Shown here one piece after another: positions 6,401 to 14,700 of a DNA stretch of 63,311 nt. The position numbers and the translations under genes are program-made. The notes below the pieces were generated by a model, which searched no databases, was not told where the DNA came from, and worked only from the letters and a program-made list of their open reading frames with translations. This stretch comes from Candidatus Eiseniibacteriota bacterium. Lineage in GTDB: Bacteria; Arandabacterota; Arandabacteria; Arandabacterales; Arandabacteraceae. The stretch covers positions 1-63,311 of the forward strand of contig JBDRNT010000012.1 of assembly GCA_043810925.1 (NCBI GenBank), in the 5' to 3' direction. Position 1 is the stretch's first letter; every line of letters begins with the position of its first letter.

Positions 6401-8788
6401 ATGGACATCGCACTGGGGATAGGTTTGATAGTCGCTCCGCTGGTTCTGGCTATCGCGCTGGGGAGAAGACTTCAGAGAAGTCCTCGGGTGAAGATAGCAG
6501 TATGGATGCTGTGTTTGGCTGTCGTGGTGGGCGGGGTCTTCAAGATTGCCGCTTCCGATTCGCGGCGGTCGTGGAGGTCGGTGAAGTCCGGGCGGTCGGT
6601 TCGCTTGGTGGACGGCCGCTTCATATTCGACGACGGCCGGCCCGGATCGTACTACGGGGGACTCGCTGGGAGCCCCGTTTTGCGTGAGGCCTTCCAGGAG
6701 GGGCAGACGTGTGAGCTGGAACTCAGATATGCGGATGCCATATCGAAGTACAAGCTGTTCCTGGAAAACCGGGATGCCAAAGCGGAGAACCGACTTGCTG
6801 CGAACATACTCATAGGAAACTGCTACTATGCCATGTCCGACTTCATGAAAGCTGAGGAGTACTATCTGGACGCGGTTGAAGTTAGCGAGCTGGCAAAGGA
6901 GGGCCGGGAACGTGACATGGCGAGGGCACTCGCACTCACCAATCTGGGCCTGGTCAAGGATTGCCTCGGGCAAAGAAGGACTGCCACGAAAATGGTCAAA
7001 GAAGCCCTCGAGATATTCGAGGAAGCGGAGCTCGGGAGGGAGGTGGCGCGATGTCTTGGTATCCTGGGTGCGTTCTCATACGATGCGGGAAATTACGAGC
7101 ACGCGCTTGACTATTACAGAGCCAGCCTCAAAGCCTCACGAGAGACAGGCTACGAGAGTGGTGTCGCGAATGAGTTGTCCAACATCGCCCTGGTGCACAT
7201 AGATCGCGGCAAACACGATGAGGCGTCGGACCTCCTTAATCAGGCCCTCACGATTTACAGGCGGAACGGCAATCAGGAAGGCGCGGCCGCTGTGCTATCC
7301 CACCTAGCGGTGCTCTATAGCGGTTCAGGCCGCATAGAAGAATCCCTCCGAACCTGGGAGGAGTCACTGGAGATTTTCCGCAAGATCGGTGACAAACAGG
7401 GTGTTTCGATGGAGCTCTGTAATATCGGAAACGTCCTTGGCAAGCGCGGCAGACTGGAGGAAGCGCTCGGCTATTACCAGGAGGCGCTGAAGATCAGCAA
7501 GGAGATCGGCGATGTGAGAGCAATCGCCGGTGCTTTCTCCGGTATCAGCAACACATACTTCAGGATGGGCATGCTCAAGGAGGCGGTCAAGAACCACCAG
7601 ACAGCAATGGAGATATATCAGAAGACCGGCGACCGGGAGGGGATGGCGGCGGCTCTCAACAGCATCGGGAACATGCACGTGAGTGTCGGTGATTTCGAGG
7701 CAGGTCTGGGGAGTTTCGAAAGAGCCCTCAAGATCAGTCGTGAGATCAGAAATGTGTCCGGGATAGTCGCCAACCTGCGCGCCATCGCTCAGGTCGATAT
7801 CAACATGGAGAGAGACGATCTGGCATTAGAGCACCTGGAGGAGGCACTGGAGATCCACAGGGATGTGGAAGACGAACGTGGCATTGCTGACGACCTGCTC
7901 CGCATTGGGATCGTACACATCATGAAGGATCGCAGCCGTGAAGCTATTGACTGTTTCCTCGACGCGGCAGAGGCAGCGAAGCGTGCCGGCTACGCCGACG
8001 GGGCTGCAAAGGCCTCCAGACATCTTGGGCTGGCACATCTCGGCATCGGAGAGACCGAGAAGGCGCTGGAGCACGTCACTGAAGCCCTCGCAGCCCATAT
8101 CGAGATGGGCTTCGACCGTGAGGTGGTTATAGACCTCGTTCAGACCGCTCTGGTCCACCTGGCTCGAGGGAGTATGGATGATGCTCTCGCATGCGGCAAA
8201 GAGGGTTTGCGGATTGCCCGGGATAACAACGATTCCGATTGCATCGCAGACGCACTCGGCACGATGGCGATAGTATACGAAAGCTTGGACAGCCTCAGGC
8301 TGGCAGTCCGATGCCGGTTGGAGGTTCTTGAAGTCAAACGAAAGAGCGGCGCTGCTGAGGAGATGGGTCAGGAGCTCGACAGAATAGGTCGTCTGTTTCT
8401 GATGTCGGGTCGGGCAAGGGCCGGAGTCTACTATCTGGAAGCGGCTCTGAGCGCACAACGGCGGGTCGGGGATCGCCGGGCGATAGCGAGCATCCTCAGC
8501 AGGCTGGGCCTGGCCTATGCCTTAACCGACACCCCCGAGCTTGGTGTAGAACGCCTGAAGGAGGCCATTGGTATTCACAGAGATGCCGGCGATGAGCTGG
8601 CTGTGGCTTCGGATCTTCGCAATCTCAGCACTGTTTACTGTCTGGCTGACAGCGTCGATCTCGGCCTCAGCAAGCTCCATGAAGCTCTGGATATATACCG
8701 GCGTCTCAATGCAGATGGCCTGTCCGAAGACGTTGACAAGGAAATCCGCGAGGTTATAAGAATTTGGAGCCCAGACCCCGGGATATAG
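6401..8788 (+). CDS. Membrane-anchored tetratricopeptide-repeat protein
   Basis: Two N-terminal hydrophobic helices, then many ~40-aa TPR_12/MalT-like repeats (e.g. NIGNVLGKRGRLEEALGYYQEALKISKEIGD); GGAGG RBS. Confidence 0.9.
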   Translation: MDIALGIGLIVAPLVLAIALGRRLQRSPRVKIAVWMLCLAVVVGGVFKIAASDSRRSWRSVKSGRSVRLVDGRFIFDDGRPGSYYGGLAGSPVLREAFQEGQTCELELRYADAISKYKLFLENRDAKAENRLAANILIGNCYYAMSDFMKAEEYYLDAVEVSELAKEGRERDMARALALTNLGLVKDCLGQRRTATKMVKEALEIFEEAELGREVARCLGILGAFSYDAGNYEHALDYYRASLKASRETGYESGVANELSNIALVHIDRGKHDEASDLLNQALTIYRRNGNQEGAAAVLSHLAVLYSGSGRIEESLRTWEESLEIFRKIGDKQGVSMELCNIGNVLGKRGRLEEALGYYQEALKISKEIGDVRAIAGAFSGISNTYFRMGMLKEAVKNHQTAMEIYQKTGDREGMAAALNSIGNMHVSVGDFEAGLGSFERALKISREIRNVSGIVANLRAIAQVDINMERDDLALEHLEEALEIHRDVEDERGIADDLLRIGIVHIMKDRSREAIDCFLDAAEAAKRAGYADGAAKASRHLGLAHLGIGETEKALEHVTEALAAHIEMGFDREVVIDLVQTALVHLARGSMDDALACGKEGLRIARDNNDSDCIADALGTMAIVYESLDSLRLAVRCRLEVLEVKRKSGAAEEMGQELDRIGRLFLMSGRARAGVYYLEAALSAQRRVGDRRAIASILSRLGLAYALTDTPELGVERLKEAIGIHRDAGDELAVASDLRNLSTVYCLADSVDLGLSKLHEALDIYRRLNADGLSEDVDKEIREVIRIWSPDPGI

Positions 8789-8796
8789 TGAGAATG

Positions 8797-8848
8797 GGTC
8801 AAGTCCGCGTTTGAGGTGCCCCCGGCTGCGTCAAACGCAGACCTGACC
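8797..8848. repeat. 18-bp imperfect inverted repeat (REP-like hairpin or terminator)
   Basis: GGTCAAGTCCGCGTTTGA (8797-8814) pairs with TCAAACGCAGACCTGACC (8831-8848). Confidence 0.55.
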
Positions 8849-8900
8849 ACTACTTGGTCTGGCGGACGCAGTCGATGACGGTGGCGTCCACCCACTTGAT

Positions 8901-9104
8901 TGTTTGCCGTCATCGAAGTCCGGACACGGAGGGGTTATAATCTCACCTGCACTTTGAGGGCCCGTCCGGCCCCGAAAGGAGGCAGCTACGGGATTCGGGG
9001 AAAGTCGTAATCCTGAGAGAGTGGGAAGAGAGATCCGCCGCAAGCCCCGCCGTAAGTTCTCGAGTGAAGAGAAGGTAGCAGCACACGAGAAAGGCGATTC
9101 TTAA
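8901..9104 (+). pseudogene. Decayed IS3-family element left end and orfA fragment
   Basis: TG...GTCCGGACAC IR-like start; AAGGAGG RBS followed by ACG (probably mutated ATG, 8988); translation ..ERVGREIRRKPRRKFSSEEKV resembles the IS3 OrfA N-terminus (EIRRxTRRKFSxEEKI); stop at 9102-9104. Confidence 0.55.
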
Positions 9105-9124
9105 ATAGCGCCACCCGTTCTGTT

Positions 9125-9149
9125 AGCCTCCCCAAACAGGACTCGAACC
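9125..9149 (-). other. tRNA 3'-end-like fragment (possible att-site relic)
   Basis: Minus strand GGTTCGAGTCCTGTTTGGGGAGGCT = T-loop plus acceptor-stem-like sequence, with no 5' half. Confidence 0.4.
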
Positions 9150-9319
9150 GGGGCTTATTTTAGGCAATTGACACTTCCGGGGGATTTGAGAATAGTAAAT
9201 ATAGATGGGTTGAGATCTGTGCCTAACTAAGGCAACCATGGCTTCGGTGAATTCGGGTAATTATTGCCCGACTTGGTTTGAAGCCGCCTCGAGTGCGCAC
9301 AGAAGGGAGAACAAGAATC

Positions 9320-9658
9320 ATGGGGCGCAAGATTCTACTCTTTGTCGTGATGGGGCTCCTGACTTTCGGACTGCTCGGAATTGCCCTCGCAGAAACCCCT
9401 CCCCGTAGAGACTACGGGGGTGACCCGGGGCCCAGACCTCTGCAGTGGGGCGATCCGGATTGGCCATCCTACAGCAGGGAAGCCGGTGTTGCACGGCGGC
9501 TTGCTGTGGAAGACGCAGATGCGACCATCCGGCCTGACGGCATGGATGCTCACAGGGCCCGGTTTGGCTCGGCCGGTCATGTCCGGGATAGGCACGGAGC
9601 GCCGTCAAGACGTTACGTAGTGAGGGTACTGGGACTCACCATTGTTATCCGGAGATAG
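9320..9658 (+). CDS. Small secreted protein / putative signalling pro-peptide with two GDP motifs
   Basis: GAAGGGAG RBS then ATG 9320; Sec signal MGRKILLFVVMGLLTFGLLGIALA; mature part has DYGGDPGP and QWGDPDWP; 112 aa; ends 2 bp before the TPR-bEBP start. Confidence 0.7.
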   Translation: MGRKILLFVVMGLLTFGLLGIALAETPPRRDYGGDPGPRPLQWGDPDWPSYSREAGVARRLAVEDADATIRPDGMDAHRARFGSAGHVRDRHGAPSRRYVVRVLGLTIVIRR

Positions 9659-9660
9659 CT

Positions 9661-11904
9661 GTGGACATAACCAGTGAGCTGAGTGATCTGCAGCACTTGA
9701 TTGCTGCGGGGAAGCTTAAGAGCGCAAGGGGCAAGTACAGGGCTATTGCCGACCGGATGCAGTGCTCCGGCGAAGAGGAAGAGCAACTGGTCCTTGAATT
9801 CCTCAAGGCGCAGATTCTTGCAGGAGAAGAGGACTACTCGACGGCCATCGGAATCGCCGACAGGCTTCTCGTACGGTTCAGGCAGCTTAATCTGAGGGAC
9901 AGGGCGGCAAGGTGTCACCTGCTTCTCTCGGGCCTGCTGCTTCGGACCGGTGATTACCGCAGTGCCAGATCCCATGCCGAGGCCGCGATCTACTTCTGTA
10001 GCTGGGAGCTGGATGACGAGGCCCTGCGGGGAGACGCGCACAACGATCTCGGGCTGGCGCTAAAGGATCTGGGTGTGTGGGAGGAAGCCGAGCGCCACTT
10101 CAGAGAAGCAATCGATGCCTACGCCGGCACCGGCGATGGTATGAGGAATCTGCGGGTATCACTCAACCTCGCCATTCTCCTGAGGAAGATGGGTAAGATC
10201 GCCCAGGCGAGCGATATATGTATAAAGGGCCTTGAGAAGTCGGAGGAGCTCAGTGTCCCGATAGGTGTCTGCCGCTACGGGCTTGAGCTGGCCAACATCA
10301 GCGTCATAAAGCGTGACCCGGATGAAGCGGCCGAGTACCTGCGTATTGCCAGAAAGGTCGCTGAGACCAATGGTTACAAGCGGGAGAAGCTCCTGGCCCT
10401 TGAGATCGATGGGGACTTGCTTGATCTTCGAGGTGACTCAGCCGGAGCCTTGACTACGTATGAATCCGGTCTCGACCTTTCCCGTGCCCTCGCTAAGGGT
10501 GGGGATCTCGAGGCGGAGTTCTTACGGCGTGCGGCGGCAGTGTGTCTTAAGATGGCCAGGATCGAGGACGGCAAACGTCATGTGAGCGAAGCTCTTGATC
10601 TTAACGATGAAGCTGATGACGCCTATGAACACGGTGTCTGTCTCCGGATTCTTGGTGAGCTCGAGCTTGGCGAAGGCATCGGGGGATGCGGGATTGAGCA
10701 TCTCGAAGAATCGGTTATGGCGTTGACGAATCTCTCACCCTGGTGTTCTGAGCTGGCCGCAGCCGAACTTGCCCTTGGTGAAGCACTTCTGGGACAGAAT
10801 GGCGGCAATGGCGCCGGCTCCGCTGTTGAGCACCTGCTTGCAGCCCGGCGCATTTACTCAAACCTCGGCGTGGGATCGGCGCTCCGGGCCCTCGATGACG
10901 TGATTTTCTCCTCCATTGCGGCAAGCCCGATCGGTCTTAAGAAGCAGATGGCACGGGATGGCAATATCCGTACGGTGTCACGCCACCGGCTGAATCCCGG
11001 GCAATACGGGATTGTGACGGAAGACGAGAGGATAGTCGGAGACCTCGCACGCTGGGGCCCGACGGAGGCACGCATACTCGTTGAGGGTGAGACGGGCGTG
11101 GGCAAGGAGTTGATGGCCAGGGCTCTGCACGCGATGAGCCGGCGCCGTGAAGGCGCTTTTGTGGCGGTTGACTGCGGTGCGCTAAGTGAGACTCTGGCGG
11201 ATAGCGAGCTTTTCGGTCATGTCCGGGGCGCATTTACCGGTGCCATGAAAGACCGGATCGGGTTGATTGAAAGTGCCAACGGCGGGACCCTGTTTTTGGA
11301 TGAAATCGGTGAGCTGAGTGAAGTTCTTCAGGTCAAGCTCCTGCGCGTGCTCGAGGACGGTATTGTGAGACGCGTGGGCGAGAATGTACCAAAGCGAATT
11401 GATGTCCGGGTGATCAGTGCGACTGCGCGTGACCTCTGGGCGGAGGTGGAGGCCGGGAGGTTCAGACGTGATCTTTACTACCGCCTGAAAACAGTTCTTA
11501 TAAGGATCCCTACCCTGAGAGAGCGCCCCTACGACATCGAACCGCTCCTCGAACACTATATGGGGGCATACGGTGACGGGCACGGCGTGACCATCGGGCT
11601 CAGCCCCGAGGCAAACACGGCATTGACCGCGTATGACTGGCCCGGCAACGTGAGAGAACTTAAGAACGTTGCCGAGGCGCTTATCCTCTCAAGCGGCGAC
11701 GGGGACACCGTCGATTGCGAGGAGGTGGCCGCTTTCCTGACGAATGGGACTGCCGAGATGGGTCTAAAGGACAGGATAGCGGATGTTGAGCACGAGGAGA
11801 TCGAGCGGGTTCTCAAGGTCTGTGATGGCAACAAGACCAAAGCCGCCCAGATGCTCGGCATCAGCAGGAAGACCCTCTGGCAGCGACTCAAGCAGGCGAG
11901 TTAG
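9661..11904 (+). CDS. sigma54-dependent enhancer-binding protein with N-terminal TPR sensory region and C-terminal Fis-type HTH
   Basis: ~420 aa of TPR-like repeats; Walker A GETGVGKE, GAFTGA, LFLDE, FRRDLYYRL, WPGNVRELKN; HTH GNKTKAAQMLGISRKTLWQRLK. Confidence 0.92.
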   Translation: MDITSELSDLQHLIAAGKLKSARGKYRAIADRMQCSGEEEEQLVLEFLKAQILAGEEDYSTAIGIADRLLVRFRQLNLRDRAARCHLLLSGLLLRTGDYRSARSHAEAAIYFCSWELDDEALRGDAHNDLGLALKDLGVWEEAERHFREAIDAYAGTGDGMRNLRVSLNLAILLRKMGKIAQASDICIKGLEKSEELSVPIGVCRYGLELANISVIKRDPDEAAEYLRIARKVAETNGYKREKLLALEIDGDLLDLRGDSAGALTTYESGLDLSRALAKGGDLEAEFLRRAAAVCLKMARIEDGKRHVSEALDLNDEADDAYEHGVCLRILGELELGEGIGGCGIEHLEESVMALTNLSPWCSELAAAELALGEALLGQNGGNGAGSAVEHLLAARRIYSNLGVGSALRALDDVIFSSIAASPIGLKKQMARDGNIRTVSRHRLNPGQYGIVTEDERIVGDLARWGPTEARILVEGETGVGKELMARALHAMSRRREGAFVAVDCGALSETLADSELFGHVRGAFTGAMKDRIGLIESANGGTLFLDEIGELSEVLQVKLLRVLEDGIVRRVGENVPKRIDVRVISATARDLWAEVEAGRFRRDLYYRLKTVLIRIPTLRERPYDIEPLLEHYMGAYGDGHGVTIGLSPEANTALTAYDWPGNVRELKNVAEALILSSGDGDTVDCEEVAAFLTNGTAEMGLKDRIADVEHEEIERVLKVCDGNKTKAAQMLGISRKTLWQRLKQAS

Positions 11905-11974
11905 GCGAAGTCCCAGGTTTTAATCCCTCAATCAGCTGATCCCAAAAATCCAAGCCTGACCCCATGGGTATTGT

Positions 11975-12156
11975 GGAAACGGTTTGGGTAACGAGGTAAC
12001 GGTTGGGATGGGTGGCAGCACGCCGTGCGCTCATCACCGACAGGCTCGCCGCGTCGCATATCATCTCTTTCTAATTGTATTTAAATGGGTTACGCCAGCA
12101 CTACGACGTTTGGCTTTTTTCGGCCCTGATCCGTGGCGGGTGGCCCTCTTCTTGCT
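11975..12156 (+). promoter_or_regulatory. sigma54 promoter region (putative UAS, IHF-like site, -24/-12)
   Basis: TGGCCCTCTTCTTGCT at 12141-12156 (GG-N10-GC); three GGWAACG repeats at 11975-12002; AT-rich TTTAAATGGGTTA near 12080-12092. Confidence 0.7.
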
Positions 12157-12237
12157 TTTATGCTCTGCCGGGCGAGCTCTCATAACTCGCTCGAGTCTGA
12201 CCTGCACTTCACCTGGTCGGATTGAGGAGGATACGTG

Positions 12238-12546
12238 ATGTCTCAGACGGCAGCCATCAGGCCTGTGAACAAAGCAACCCGCACGGTGTTTCCACAGACC
12301 TCTGCCCATCGGGCCCTGTACGGCCTTCCCAAGGAGATTGAAGTTGGACAGCATGATGCGGCCCCAGCACTCACGGCTGTTCGTCTCTGGGGCAACTATC
12401 CTCCACCCGCCTCCGCATCCCTTCGTTGCAAGTTTGGCGTCGAGGATATAGGGATTCCATCCCAGGTGGAGTGTAGCTGGGGCCACCATGCACAGTATGC
12501 CAGGGGCAAGGGTGGCTATTTGTCCGGGGGAACGGTCAAGGGCTAA
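12238..12546 (+). CDS. Small hypothetical protein downstream of sigma54 promoter (WGNYPP / RCKFG / SWGHH motifs)
   Basis: AGGAGG (12225-12230) 7 nt before ATG; 102 aa; no recognisable family. Confidence 0.55.
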   Translation: MSQTAAIRPVNKATRTVFPQTSAHRALYGLPKEIEVGQHDAAPALTAVRLWGNYPPPASASLRCKFGVEDIGIPSQVECSWGHHAQYARGKGGYLSGGTVKG

Positions 12547-12565
12547 GGGGCGCCTGTTCGACACA

Positions 12566-12602
12566 AGTGGCGCACAGGGGCGTCTGTGCGCCACTCCTCT
12601 TT
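12566..12602 (+). terminator. Hairpin / probable terminator
   Basis: Perfect 12-bp stem AGTGGCGCACAG-N6-CTGTGCGCCACT followed by CCTCTTTTCT. Confidence 0.55.
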
Positions 12603-12748
12603 CTGCATCAAGACCTTCTGTGATCATCACCTCAGAGGTTCACGATTTGCCAAAAGCTGAGTATAGTTGGGACAGACGAGCTACAAGAACCGTGCGGACT
12701 ATGCAGGCTTTTGCTTTAACAGGCCTGCCTGGGCAGGAGGCAGATTCC

Positions 12749-12943
12749 ATGGGACCAAGAACTGTTATCCCCTGCTTGGTTGCTTTGGTCAAAGGGGCAC
12801 TCACCCCGAGTGCTCGCGCGATGGTTGAGCATCCCAGTTGCGTGGGGCCGCCACCCTTATCACCAAGCCTGGCATCATCCAACGCCCCCATGACTCTTTC
12901 CTCGGGAAGCGATACTGTCCACAAAGAGGTGCACGTCGATTAA
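12749..12943 (+). CDS. Small hypothetical ORF (64 aa), possibly a decayed paralog of 12238-12546
   Basis: AGGAGG RBS before ATG 12749; shares GGGGC-NNN-CACCC nucleotide motifs with the upstream ORF, but in other frames. Confidence 0.3.
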   Translation: MGPRTVIPCLVALVKGALTPSARAMVEHPSCVGPPPLSPSLASSNAPMTLSSGSDTVHKEVHVD

Positions 12944-13113
12944 TCCTCCTGCCCAGAGGACGCACGCCGGCGCGCTTCCAAAACCGCTCACAAAATTCCG
13001 CCTCCGAATGCTATCTTGACGCGGATTGGGTTGCACGGGGAATTAGTTCAAGGTAATATCCCGGCAGGTCGTTTAAGTAAGGAGAGGGCTGTTTTGGAAG
13101 GAGGAGAAGTCAC

Positions 13114-13671
13114 ATGTTGATACTACTCATCGTCGTAGCAGTTATTGCCATAATTGTGATCGGGATGTACAACACGCTTATCAGAAAGAAGAACCAGGTT
13201 AGCAACATCTTCGCCACGGTTGATGCAATCCTCAAGAAGCGGTATGACCTGATCCCGAACCTTGTGGCCACGGCTCAGGAGTATATGGAGCATGAGAAAC
13301 ATGTGCTGACCGAGGTTACGAAGCTCAGGGCCAAGGCTCTCTCGGGGGACGCATCGGATGAGGAGAAGATCGAGATTGATCGCAAGATCTCGAAGGCGAT
13401 TCGCGGCATCCTGGTCGCGGTGGAGAATTACCCCAACCTTAAGGCCAACGAGAATTTCCTTCATCTCCAGGCTACCCTGAATGAGGTTGAAGAACAGATC
13501 TCGGCTGCACGGAGAGCGTACAACGCGGCGGTGACGGACTACAACAACGCTATCGAGGTGTTCCCGACAAATATAATGGCCAATATCATCAACTATCGCC
13601 GGAAACCACTGTTCGAAATAACTCCCGGAGAGCGTGAGGCTGTAGACGTCCACCAGCTCTTCCAGCGATAG
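13114..13671 (+). CDS. lemA: LemA family protein
   Basis: N-terminal TM; YN, KRYDLIPNLV, ENYPNLKANENF, ARRAYN, FP motifs. Confidence 0.95.
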   Translation: MLILLIVVAVIAIIVIGMYNTLIRKKNQVSNIFATVDAILKKRYDLIPNLVATAQEYMEHEKHVLTEVTKLRAKALSGDASDEEKIEIDRKISKAIRGILVAVENYPNLKANENFLHLQATLNEVEEQISAARRAYNAAVTDYNNAIEVFPTNIMANIINYRRKPLFEITPGEREAVDVHQLFQR

Positions 13672-13701: not shown

Positions 13702-14700
13702 ATGGCCTACCGAAGCGAATCGGATTTCGCACATTTCTATGCCACAGATCTGCACAAGGAGCTCAAGCAGCTTGATGTGCAGAGAAGGGCTGTGCTCAGG
13801 AAAGTGATGGTGGTCATTGCCATCGCGGTCGCGGTGATGGCCGCGGGCATCGCGTTCGTGGCTGCGTACCGGCTTCCGGCCAACGTCCTCATGATAGGCC
13901 TGTTTATGTGTGGAGGCGGGGGCACCTTCTTCTACAGATTTCTCATAAGCGGCTATGTCCATGAGTTCAAGTTGAGAATCATAAAGAAGATCATCGAGTT
14001 CGTGGACCCGGGTCTGGTCTACTCTCCAAAGGGGTTTGTCTCCAAGGTCCAGTTCAACTCGAGCCGGATCTTCCAGAGATTCCCGGACAGGATGAGGGGT
14101 GATGACCTGGTCGAGGGCAGGATAGGAAAGACAGACATCACCTTCTCGGAAGTCCATGCCGAGTACAAAACCCACTCCTCGTCTCGTCACGGAGGAAGGA
14201 AGAAGCAGTATCACACGATCTTTAAGGGGCTCTTCTTCAAGGCGGACTTCAACAAGAAGTTCTATGGGAAGACCGTGGTCCTGCCGGATACTGCTGAAAA
14301 GGTCTTCGGCGGCCTGGGTTCGTTCTTCCAGAAACTCAACTGGACACGTGGTGATCTCATCAAGCTGGATGATCCGGAGTTCGAGCGGTATTTCGTCGTC
14401 TACGCGGATGACCAGATAGAGTCGCGGTATATCCTCTCGACAAGTTTGATGAAACGGATTGTCGACTTCCGGAAGAAGACCGGTAAGCGGATCTTTTTAT
14501 CATTCGTCGGCTCAGAGGTTTTCGTCGCGGTTCCGTACAAGCGGGGACTTTTCGAACCCAGGGTATTCACGAGCATCACGGGTTTTAAGAGCGTGAAGGA
14601 GTACTTCGAGGATCTTCAGCTTGCGCTGGGTATTGTCGAAGATCTCGATCTCAACACACGAATCTGGAGCAAGACAAGCATTCCTTCAGAAACCCCGTAG
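13702..14700 (+). CDS. DUF3137 domain membrane protein (LemA-associated)
   Basis: Two TM helices; FKGLFFKADFNKKF, LDDPEFERYFVVYADDQIESRYILS, LDLNTRIWSK. Confidence 0.85.
   Translation: MAYRSESDFAHFYATDLHKELKQLDVQRRAVLRKVMVVIAIAVAVMAAGIAFVAAYRLPANVLMIGLFMCGGGGTFFYRFLISGYVHEFKLRIIKKIIEFVDPGLVYSPKGFVSKVQFNSSRIFQRFPDRMRGDDLVEGRIGKTDITFSEVHAEYKTHSSSRHGGRKKQYHTIFKGLFFKADFNKKFYGKTVVLPDTAEKVFGGLGSFFQKLNWTRGDLIKLDDPEFERYFVVYADDQIESRYILSTSLMKRIVDFRKKTGKRIFLSFVGSEVFVAVPYKRGLFEPRVFTSITGFKSVKEYFEDLQLALGIVEDLDLNTRIWSKTSIPSETP

Follow-up and report, generated by a model that had tools for sequence, protein, structure and literature searches.

A conserved pairing of a predicted exported small protein with a TPR-sigma54 activator, adjoining a sigma54 promoter and a probable structured RNA, in Candidatus Eiseniibacteriota

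The window is contig C12 (JBDRNT010000012.1; 63,311 nucleotides) of the 3.85-Mb, 91.7% complete genome assembly of a Candidatus Eiseniibacteriota bacterium (GCA_043810925.1; hereafter G000). It contains a compact cassette in which a gene for a small protein with a predicted signal peptide directly precedes a gene for a transcription activator that combines an N-terminal TPR superhelix with a sigma54 AAA+ domain and a C-terminal HTH (Table 1). The recurrence of these two genes across genomes supports the view that the small protein and the activator are a conserved functional pair. Downstream of them lie conserved repeats, a predicted sigma54 promoter and a transcription unit that is probably a structured RNA. 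An earlier note, made from the DNA alone, had described the first gene as a 112-aa signal-peptide open reading frame (ORF) with two GDP-containing motifs that ends 2 bp before a 747-aa gene, and the product of the latter as a TPR protein with a sigma54 AAA+ domain (GAFTGA loop included) and a Fis-type HTH, lacking REC, GAF and PAS domains. The ORF coordinates and the Pfam domains, with no match to REC, GAF or PAS in the 747-aa protein, agree with both descriptions, the signal peptide being a prediction.

The pairing of the two genes persists wherever it could be read in the 745-aa activator class. The loci comprise 12 from genomes with a readable upstream region (orthologs in eight genomes, together with paralogous pairs, two in G005 and one each in G007 and G009) and four from metagenomes; three further loci cut by contig ends were excluded. 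A signal-peptide ORF with a WGDP[DE] core lies directly upstream of the activator in 16/16 of these loci, one of which (L089) repeats the small ORF of G007 and is hence not independent. The check put forward in the earlier note, namely a search for homologous activators without an adjacent secreted GDP-motif ORF, thus brought none to light in this class. Among the 40 nearest genomes searched, the window's own family is the only one with full-length relatives of the activator; a metagenome scan with the TPR alignment gave four true relatives among the 53 loci listed, and a search for related loci with a five-sequence alignment gave four, all already known from the genome search. Among 5.8 billion protein clusters, about 40 cluster representatives are related to the activator, all of ~745 aa and none named beyond 'hypothetical', and just 21 are related to the small protein, all without a name or 'hypothetical'.

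Comparable pairs are seen with larger TPR activators. G000 itself codes for two more, of ~1000 aa, on contigs C37 and C71, both with TPR, sigma54 AAA+ and HTH_8 domains (the C37 protein alone also matching GAF, weakly), each with its own upstream signal-peptide GDPD ORF (...HDWGDPDIFEG... and ...RWHGDPDEFE..., respectively). Across the window's class, 13 of the 15 readable regions upstream of ~1000-aa TPR activators contain an ORF that combines a signal peptide and a G-[DE]-x-[DE] motif (e.g., CNGDPDEFQ, GGDPDTPE, HGDDDIPE, WGGDHDIPQ, and GGGDELES), the exceptions being an ambiguous case in G036 (WDGDSSP) and one locus without such an ORF. When 401 genomes were searched with the TPR-GAF portion of the C37 protein as query, full-length ~1000-aa homologs turned up in other phylum-level lineages; in 12/12 of the distant loci examined a signal-peptide-like ORF of 70-148 aa lies upstream, with GDGD, GDPD, GDDD, GDAD or GEPD in 10 and G-x-DYNEAEPWDD in the remaining two. 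None of these 12 small ORFs has a Pfam family, and all four distant activators checked display the architecture TPR + GAF + Sigma54_activat + HTH_8 in Pfam. The residues flanking the motif are class-specific and kept across genera, viz., WGDPDWP, GGDPDI[FWV][ED] and C[NQ]GDPDEFQ, and many small proteins of the other classes end in a W/R-rich amphipathic segment. The distance from small ORF to activator is 2 nt in the window and 3-52 nt at most other loci, reaching 123 nt in other classes. In G016 and G017 ('GDELES' subclass), the small ORF is itself preceded by a sigma54 site.

These patterns bear on the alternative of mere co-expression: the small protein would be an envelope or secreted effector whose synthesis is tied to that of the activator, and the TPR (and GAF) domains would sense something else. 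Such an arrangement would accommodate the extra GAF domain of the larger relatives, which could be the real sensor, as well as the diversity of apparent targets (an RNA in the window, a sigma70-family factor next to the C37-type modules and a C25 peptidase operon next to the paralogs). However, adjacency is retained over phylum-level distances and in several paralogous classes, and the motif flanks track the class of the activator. Moreover, the adjacency is specific to TPR activators: as a control, none of the 10 non-TPR sigma54 activators of G000 found by pattern has a signal-peptide GDPD-type ORF, as against both TPR activators caught by the same pattern and all three TPR activators of that genome. 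We consider mere co-expression improbable.

The small protein begins with a basic N-terminus (MGRK) followed by a hydrophobic stretch and an ALA|E cleavage-type site, the signal peptide being called by eye and from the invariant alanine at -1; a TTG at 9278 is an alternative start. In an alignment of 29 small proteins, A24, G44, D45 and P46 are invariant, and the orthologs further share G-x-PGP-[KR]-P ahead of the core and a C-terminus of the form S-x-x-Y-x-[VM]-R-[VI]-L-G-x-T-I-x-I-R-R. Conservation is confined to the signal peptide, the motif with its flanks and the C-terminal segment, the remainder diverging fast. With G000 as reference, the differences at the three codon positions are 14/15/20 against the same-genus genome G001 and 33/39/62 against G007, and the gene is thus coding but fast-evolving. 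Its product has no Pfam or NCBIfam family; the Atlas model (pLDDT 0.57) predicts a largely disordered protein, and a Protein Atlas search with it gave no usable match. Relatives across the classes measure 70-148 aa, against 112 aa in the window. Two other explanations of the motif were considered. GDPH motifs are known self-cleavage sites, and we examined the Asp-Pro bond as a site of this kind; it was dropped as a general explanation, since other classes have G, D, H or A in place of the proline. A PEP-CTERM-type C-terminal sorting signal was rejected, with motif and hydrophobic tail lying 50-70 residues apart.

The activator has the two features of bacterial enhancer-binding proteins, namely an AAA+ domain with an intact GAFTGA loop (residue 522) and a C-terminal Fis-type HTH, and rpoN is encoded in the genome. 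Its differences from the G001 ortholog (33/20/193 by codon position) show that it is under strong purifying selection; no NCBIfam equivalog scores above its cut-off. The AF2 model of residues 1-440 consists of 22 helices (pLDDT 90.1), and a fold search with it gives LGN/Pins as the best match (E 3e-9), with APC5 (TMq 0.77), domain III of MalT at rank 28 and Rap with bound pheromone at ranks 32-49 (TMq 0.63, TMt 0.74-0.77). The model hence resembles peptide-binding superhelices, a likeness generic to TPR folds and not diagnostic. Prediction of a complex between TPR residues 1-440 (40-row alignment) and the mature small protein, residues 25-112 (28 rows), gave an ipSAE of 0.02 in each of two runs (mark, 0.32), a value that speaks neither for nor against binding, with the controls not folded and the fold of the partner itself uncertain.

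We propose, tentatively and with somewhat less than even confidence, that the ligand of the TPR sensor is a fragment of the small protein bearing the motif. A sigma70-type promoter would drive a bicistronic operon whose products are a largely disordered small protein, exported via Sec, and a TPR-sigma54 activator located in the cytoplasm, and the acidic linear motif near the mature N-terminus of the former (G-D-P-D core, here WGDPDWP) would be the cognate signal for the TPR domain of the latter. Cleavage of the small protein would take place in the envelope or extracellularly, and the motif-bearing fragment would be taken up, plausibly via OPT, and lodge in the TPR groove, shifting the AAA+ domain to another oligomeric or ATPase state. 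The activator would in turn bind the GTAAC repeats and open the sigma54 promoter at 12141-12156, with a ~400-nt structured RNA as the output of the circuit. We infer the export, cleavage, processing, uptake and peptide-TPR binding in this scheme, along with the sign of the regulation and the action of the activator on its adjacent promoter.

As to the first step, the block 9160-9250, with the sigma70-like promoter, is near-identical between G000 and G001, which diverge further upstream, and a scan of 11 loci of the 745-aa activator class found no sigma54-like site upstream of the small ORF. Between this promoter and the small ORF is a ~120-nt leader, conserved in part with G001, that contains an 8-bp hairpin, TCGGGTAATTATTGCCCGA, at 9253-9271 (+). 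As to uptake, an OPT oligopeptide transporter is present in all 26 module genomes examined (G000 and 25 others), against a background of 136 of the 401 sampled genomes, or 118 of the 383 outside the window's class. PTR2 was not found in G000.

Several observations weigh against the ligand proposal. The co-occurrence with OPT is confounded by phylogeny and lifestyle, which could explain part of it, and the 12 distant module genomes come from only eight families. SBP_bac_5, the Opp-type binding protein, was not found in G000 at its 91.7% completeness, and just 15 of 28 module genomes encode it. Given a double-membraned cell, as indicated by the seven Omp85-family matches in G000, the peptide would need two passages across the outer membrane. 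Three paralogous cassettes of one genome share an identical G-D-P-D core, which would entail cross-talk unless the flanks discriminate, and which also fits a shared processing or docking site. Class-specific C-terminal segments are also kept, beta-hairpin-like in the window (...VRVLGLTIVIRR) and W/R-rich amphipathic tails elsewhere, which suggests that the whole protein may have a role. Finally, most RRNPP pro-peptides mature from the C-terminus, and the motif here sits near the mature N-terminus.

Some of these points fit better with the small protein acting inside the cell as an export-coupled anti- or co-activator. The TPR domain would bind it before export, or through the amphipathic tail at the membrane, and the activity of the activator would then report Sec or envelope status, or the loss of the partner, without any re-import. 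Partner switching of this kind has precedents in PspA-PspF, FleN-FleQ and FlgM. The tight coupling of the two genes by the short gaps given above, the conserved and often terminally basic C-terminal segments, and the binding of extended partner segments by TPR domains of this fold (LGN with NuMA/Inscuteable) are all in keeping with it, and the identical GDPD core in paralogous cassettes poses it no problem. Nevertheless, the invariant alanine at -1 and the typical signal peptides argue that the protein is efficiently exported and cleaved, the C-terminal segments lack the length for a membrane span or carry too much charge for one, and the co-occurrence with OPT would be a coincidence. On balance we judge an export-coupled partner rather unlikely.

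The close spacing of the genes also raises the prospect of a SecM/VemP-like secretion monitor, wherein translation of the signal-peptide ORF and an arrest-like C-terminal segment would control translation of the activator 2 nt further on. The signal peptide and the conserved C-terminus abutting the activator start would suit such a device, as would the last two codons of the small ORF (CGG AGA), which contain the GGAG ribosome-binding site of the activator. Yet the strongest conservation falls in the N-proximal GDxD motif, for which a monitor would have no use, other classes show gaps of 16-123 nt and different C-termini, and no arrest motif is recognizable; we hold this explanation to be very improbable.

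Returning to the proposed ligand-gated circuit, its target site is conserved beyond the genus. The earlier note had placed upstream activating sequence (UAS)-like repeats, a sigma54 promoter and a hairpin downstream of the activator, and cross-genome comparison bears out all three. The triple repeat G[TA]AAC-N7-GTAAC-N3-GTAAC recurs ~140-165 nt upstream of the sigma54 promoter in G001, G007, G003 and G009, and GTAAC-N3-GTAAC has just three occurrences in the whole 3.85-Mb genome; there is also an inverted GTTAC at 12089-12093. These repeats may be the binding site of the TPR activator. The consensus of sigma54 promoters is TGGCAC-N5-TTGCW, from which TGGCCCTCTTCTTGCT departs by one mismatch, a relaxed pattern having 10 sites genome-wide; the form TGGCCC[TC][CG]TTCTTGCT is common to five genomes in three genera, ~97 nt ahead of a conserved ATG. 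The A/T-rich block 12064-12088, proposed as an IHF-like region, is conserved only with the same-genus genome. The unit of UAS, promoter and RNA can be separated from the activator: in G003 a serine-hydrolase, beta-lactamase-like gene in the opposite orientation is inserted between them (in this genus, L063 790-2034 in G003 and L049 4232-4852 in G012), and in G007 the unit is on a different contig from the activator.

The promoter is followed by what the earlier note had called a small ORF. An open frame of 102-125 codons with conserved Shine-Dalgarno-like (SD) sequence and ATG is indeed present in all the copies read (g1, with G000 and, over the 98 codons seen, G001; g7; g3, with G003 and G009; and g5, where the G005 copy has 125 codons), but its conservation is RNA-like. 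Substitutions between genera are spread over the codon positions (37/35/30 and 32/48/32); against G001 they number 3/5/4, with four of 98 third positions changed versus 193 of 744 in the neighboring activator gene, and in the divergent G005 copy a conserved nucleotide block is read in another frame. The RNAalifold structure has 115 pairs, with 94% of cells paired. Compensatory changes affect 21 of the 115 pairs, as against 10.8 +/- 2.1 in shuffles (none of 500 reaching 21) and 1-6 with slid partners, counts which come from four sequences in three lineages and a structure derived from those same sequences, and are supportive, not decisive. The SD-like GAGGAGG pairs, with covariation, with a UCCUCC tract ~165 nt downstream. 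Since the substitutions lack codon periodicity and the predicted helices covary, the transcript is more likely a structured RNA than a coding one; on these sequence-based grounds we interpret it as probably a sigma54-dependent structured RNA of ~400 nt, which may also be translated.

An Rfam search of 8700-13200 at E <= 1 returned just one chance-level match, inside the activator gene, and a pattern search for the RNA in 18 genomes of the class found it only in the five genomes already known. In four RNA-library runs the element is present as whole contigs of 152-372 nt that lie wholly within 12179-12549 with 0-7 differences, two of them starting at 12179, and the same libraries have contigs of ~315-350 nt with a relative's version of it; these contigs, which come from RNA runs only, speak for presence, not transcription, and may include DNA carry-over. 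All nine matching sequencing runs have small word shares (0.05-0.07). On the activator gene the four RNA runs gave no long high-identity contig, only short loose-ended pieces from other organisms' AAA+ genes, a gap that carries no weight.

Outputs of other kinds adjoin the related modules. Behind the paralogous WGDPD/TPR-activator cassettes L044 (G005), L047 (G007) and L048 (G009) lie a sigma54-like promoter and an operon of three genes, for two uncharacterized, secreted-looking proteins and a C25 (gingipain-family) peptidase, which in G005 has a type-IX secretion tail (Por_Secre_tail). The C37 module of G000 (L148 4682-10077) comprises a DksA/TraR zinc-finger gene, the GDPD small ORF, the 1016-aa TPR-GAF-sigma54 activator, a sigma54-like site (CGGCACGGAACTTGCC) and a sigma70-family gene; this order is kept across the family, and in the distant genome G096 the module likewise precedes a sigma-factor target. 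Downstream of a distant TPR-GAF activator in G172 (L184 5140-5272, -), TGGCACGGTTTTTGCA stands ahead of ~110 nt that end in a perfect terminator (GGGGCGGA-loop-TCCGCCCC-TTTT); this unit has no plausible ORF and is a candidate sigma54-dependent small RNA. In G386 and G076 (L183 9944 and L187 9674) a similar leader (...GCGGAGGGGGGACCTCCA...) after the sigma54-like promoters of distant activators hints at another conserved RNA element. The modules might all belong to one multi-phylum peptide-signalling family of double-membraned bacteria, in which an exported pro-protein would give a G-D-x-D peptide that is taken up by OPT and sensed by a TPR(-GAF)-sigma54 activator acting on one adjacent sigma54 promoter, the outputs being the ~400-nt RNA, a short small RNA (G172) or a sigma factor (C37 type). 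This wider generalization is doubtful, albeit a serious possibility.

Table 1. Features of the cassette in the window (contig C12; nucleotide positions refer to the window, aa to the protein concerned)
Feature	Position	Strand	Remarks
Sigma70-like promoter of the small-ORF/activator operon, TTGACA-17-AATAGT	9168-9196	+	10/12 consensus matches
Small protein, 112 aa, predicted exported, ATG start	9320-9658	+	ORF analysis; stop TAG 9656-9658
Predicted signal peptide	aa 1-24, 9320-9391	+	AXA-type site
GDPGP motif (within YGGDPGP)	aa 34-38	+	
Core motif WGDPDWP	aa 43-49, 9446-9466	+	
C-terminal segment RRYVVRVLGLTIVIRR	aa 97-112, 9608-9655	+	
Activator, 747 aa, GTG start	9661-11904	+	2-nt gap after small-ORF stop
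TPR superhelix	aa 1-432		TPR_12/TPR_10 and weak TPR_MalT match (Pfam)
Sigma54_activat AAA+ domain	aa 460-614, 11038-11502	+	Pfam E 1.6e-61
AAA_lid_14	after linker and AAA+ domain		Pfam
HTH_8	aa 706-745, 11776-11895	+	Pfam E 6.1e-15
Putative UAS, GAAAC-N7-GTAAC-N3-GTAAC	11976-12000	+	conserved triple repeat
Predicted sigma54 promoter TGGCCCTCTTCTTGCT (-24 GG, -12 GC)	12141-12156	+	conserved in 5 genomes
Target transcript, ~400-430 nt, probable structured RNA	12167-12596	+	5' end ~12167 inferred from promoter
102-codon ORF with SD-like GAGGAGG	12238-12546	+	inside target transcript
Intrinsic terminator, 13-bp hairpin and T-tract	12566-12595	+	compensatory changes in 5/13 pairs across genomes

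Just upstream of the cassette lies a gene for a 795-aa protein (6401-8788, +) in which ~15 TPR_12-type repeats (E 6e-68) come after an N-terminal membrane helix; it falls outside the conserved module, the same-genus genome having a different sequence at that position. Between the terminator and the next gene, the ~500 nt at 12600-13113 contain no convincing gene, only two overlapping ORFs (151 and 94 aa), one on each strand, followed by genes for LemA (13114-13671, +) and a DUF3137 protein (13702-14700, +). In G007, G003 and G012 (L042 10940-12787; L049/L050) a DUF2207 membrane protein is encoded next to, and divergently from, the small ORF; the LemA, DUF3137 and DUF2207 genes may represent a recurring membrane-protein neighborhood. 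A search of the locus found no tRNA or tmRNA.

The sensor domains described for sigma54 activators are REC, GAF, PAS, V4R and the like. If the small protein and the activator are a ligand-receptor pair, they would add a new class of input to sigma54 regulation and a peptide-sensing route in double-membraned, mostly uncultured lineages, with the one adjacent promoter per module as a defined entry point for reporter tests; were the multi-phylum reading also true, this would give RRNPP quorum sensing a Gram-negative counterpart whose output is a Qrr-like RNA. To our knowledge, peptide-based cell-cell signalling via cytoplasmic TPR receptors is essentially restricted to Firmicutes and their phages. 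In the literature searched we came across neither a TPR-type sigma54 activator paired with a secreted small protein nor a Gram-negative RRNPP-like system; a prior mention is possible, supplements having been outside the search. Mechanism aside, the locus presents a conserved, predicted sigma54-dependent RNA of ~400 nt that lacks an Rfam family and is recovered from RNA libraries, and a small-protein family without a Pfam or NCBIfam model.

Among known systems, the closest in organization are the RRNPP systems (Rap-Phr, NprR-NprX, PlcR-PapR, and AimR-AimP), which likewise have a small signal-peptide ORF beside, and co-directional with, the gene of a cytoplasmic TPR regulator, several paralogous cassettes per genome, a short motif in an otherwise fast-evolving small protein, and a TPR fold that, in the case of Rap, overlaps with the one modeled here. 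They differ in that the receptor here is of 747-1050 aa with N-terminal TPRs, a sigma54 AAA+ output and a double-membraned host, in the position of the motif near the mature N-terminus and the conserved C-terminus of the small protein, and in the importer, OPT being consistently present and Opp not. Pfam and NCBIfam detected no sequence homology to the named RRNPP families. As set out in the account of RRNPP detection (Bernard et al. 2023, PMC10075063), the propeptide is of 10-100 aa and SEC-secreted, and the receptor, its direct neighbor, is of ~250-500 aa with TPRs; the authors of RRNPP_detector also discard receptors with N-terminal TPRs (PMC10075063). The window's pair has the TPR content and the direct adjacency. 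Its small protein, of 112 aa with relatives of 70-148 aa, is borderline for the propeptide range, and its secretion is a prediction from the basic N-terminus, hydrophobic core and AXA site. Its receptor departs in size and in domain order, with N-terminal TPR and C-terminal HTH, a further point against the proposal in the strict RRNPP sense. Because receptor size and domain order fail to match, the system is not a member of RRNPP, although it may by analogy work like one. The earlier note's reading of an RRNPP-like circuit is partly supported.

On the output side, the LuxO-Qrr system of Vibrio has a sigma54 activator adjoining a sigma54-dependent regulatory RNA, and the window likewise places an activator gene beside a sigma54 promoter that would drive a non-coding-looking RNA; however, LuxO is a phosphorelay regulator with a REC domain, which is absent here, and the RNA, at ~400 nt, is of unrelated sequence. 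The fusion of a helical-repeat sensor to a transcription-controlling NTPase is reminiscent of MalT and other STAND regulators, to which the weak TPR_MalT match also points, but MalT has a different domain order and no secreted partner, and the NTPase here is a sigma54 AAA+ instead of a STAND domain. PspF-PspA and FleQ-FleN similarly combine a sigma54 activator with a separately encoded small partner protein, partner control in our case being a proposal; those partners are cytoplasmic or membrane-peripheral without a signal peptide, and those activators lack TPRs. By analogy, the logic of the system would resemble RRNPP-type sensing joined to a LuxO-Qrr-like RNA output, while belonging to neither.

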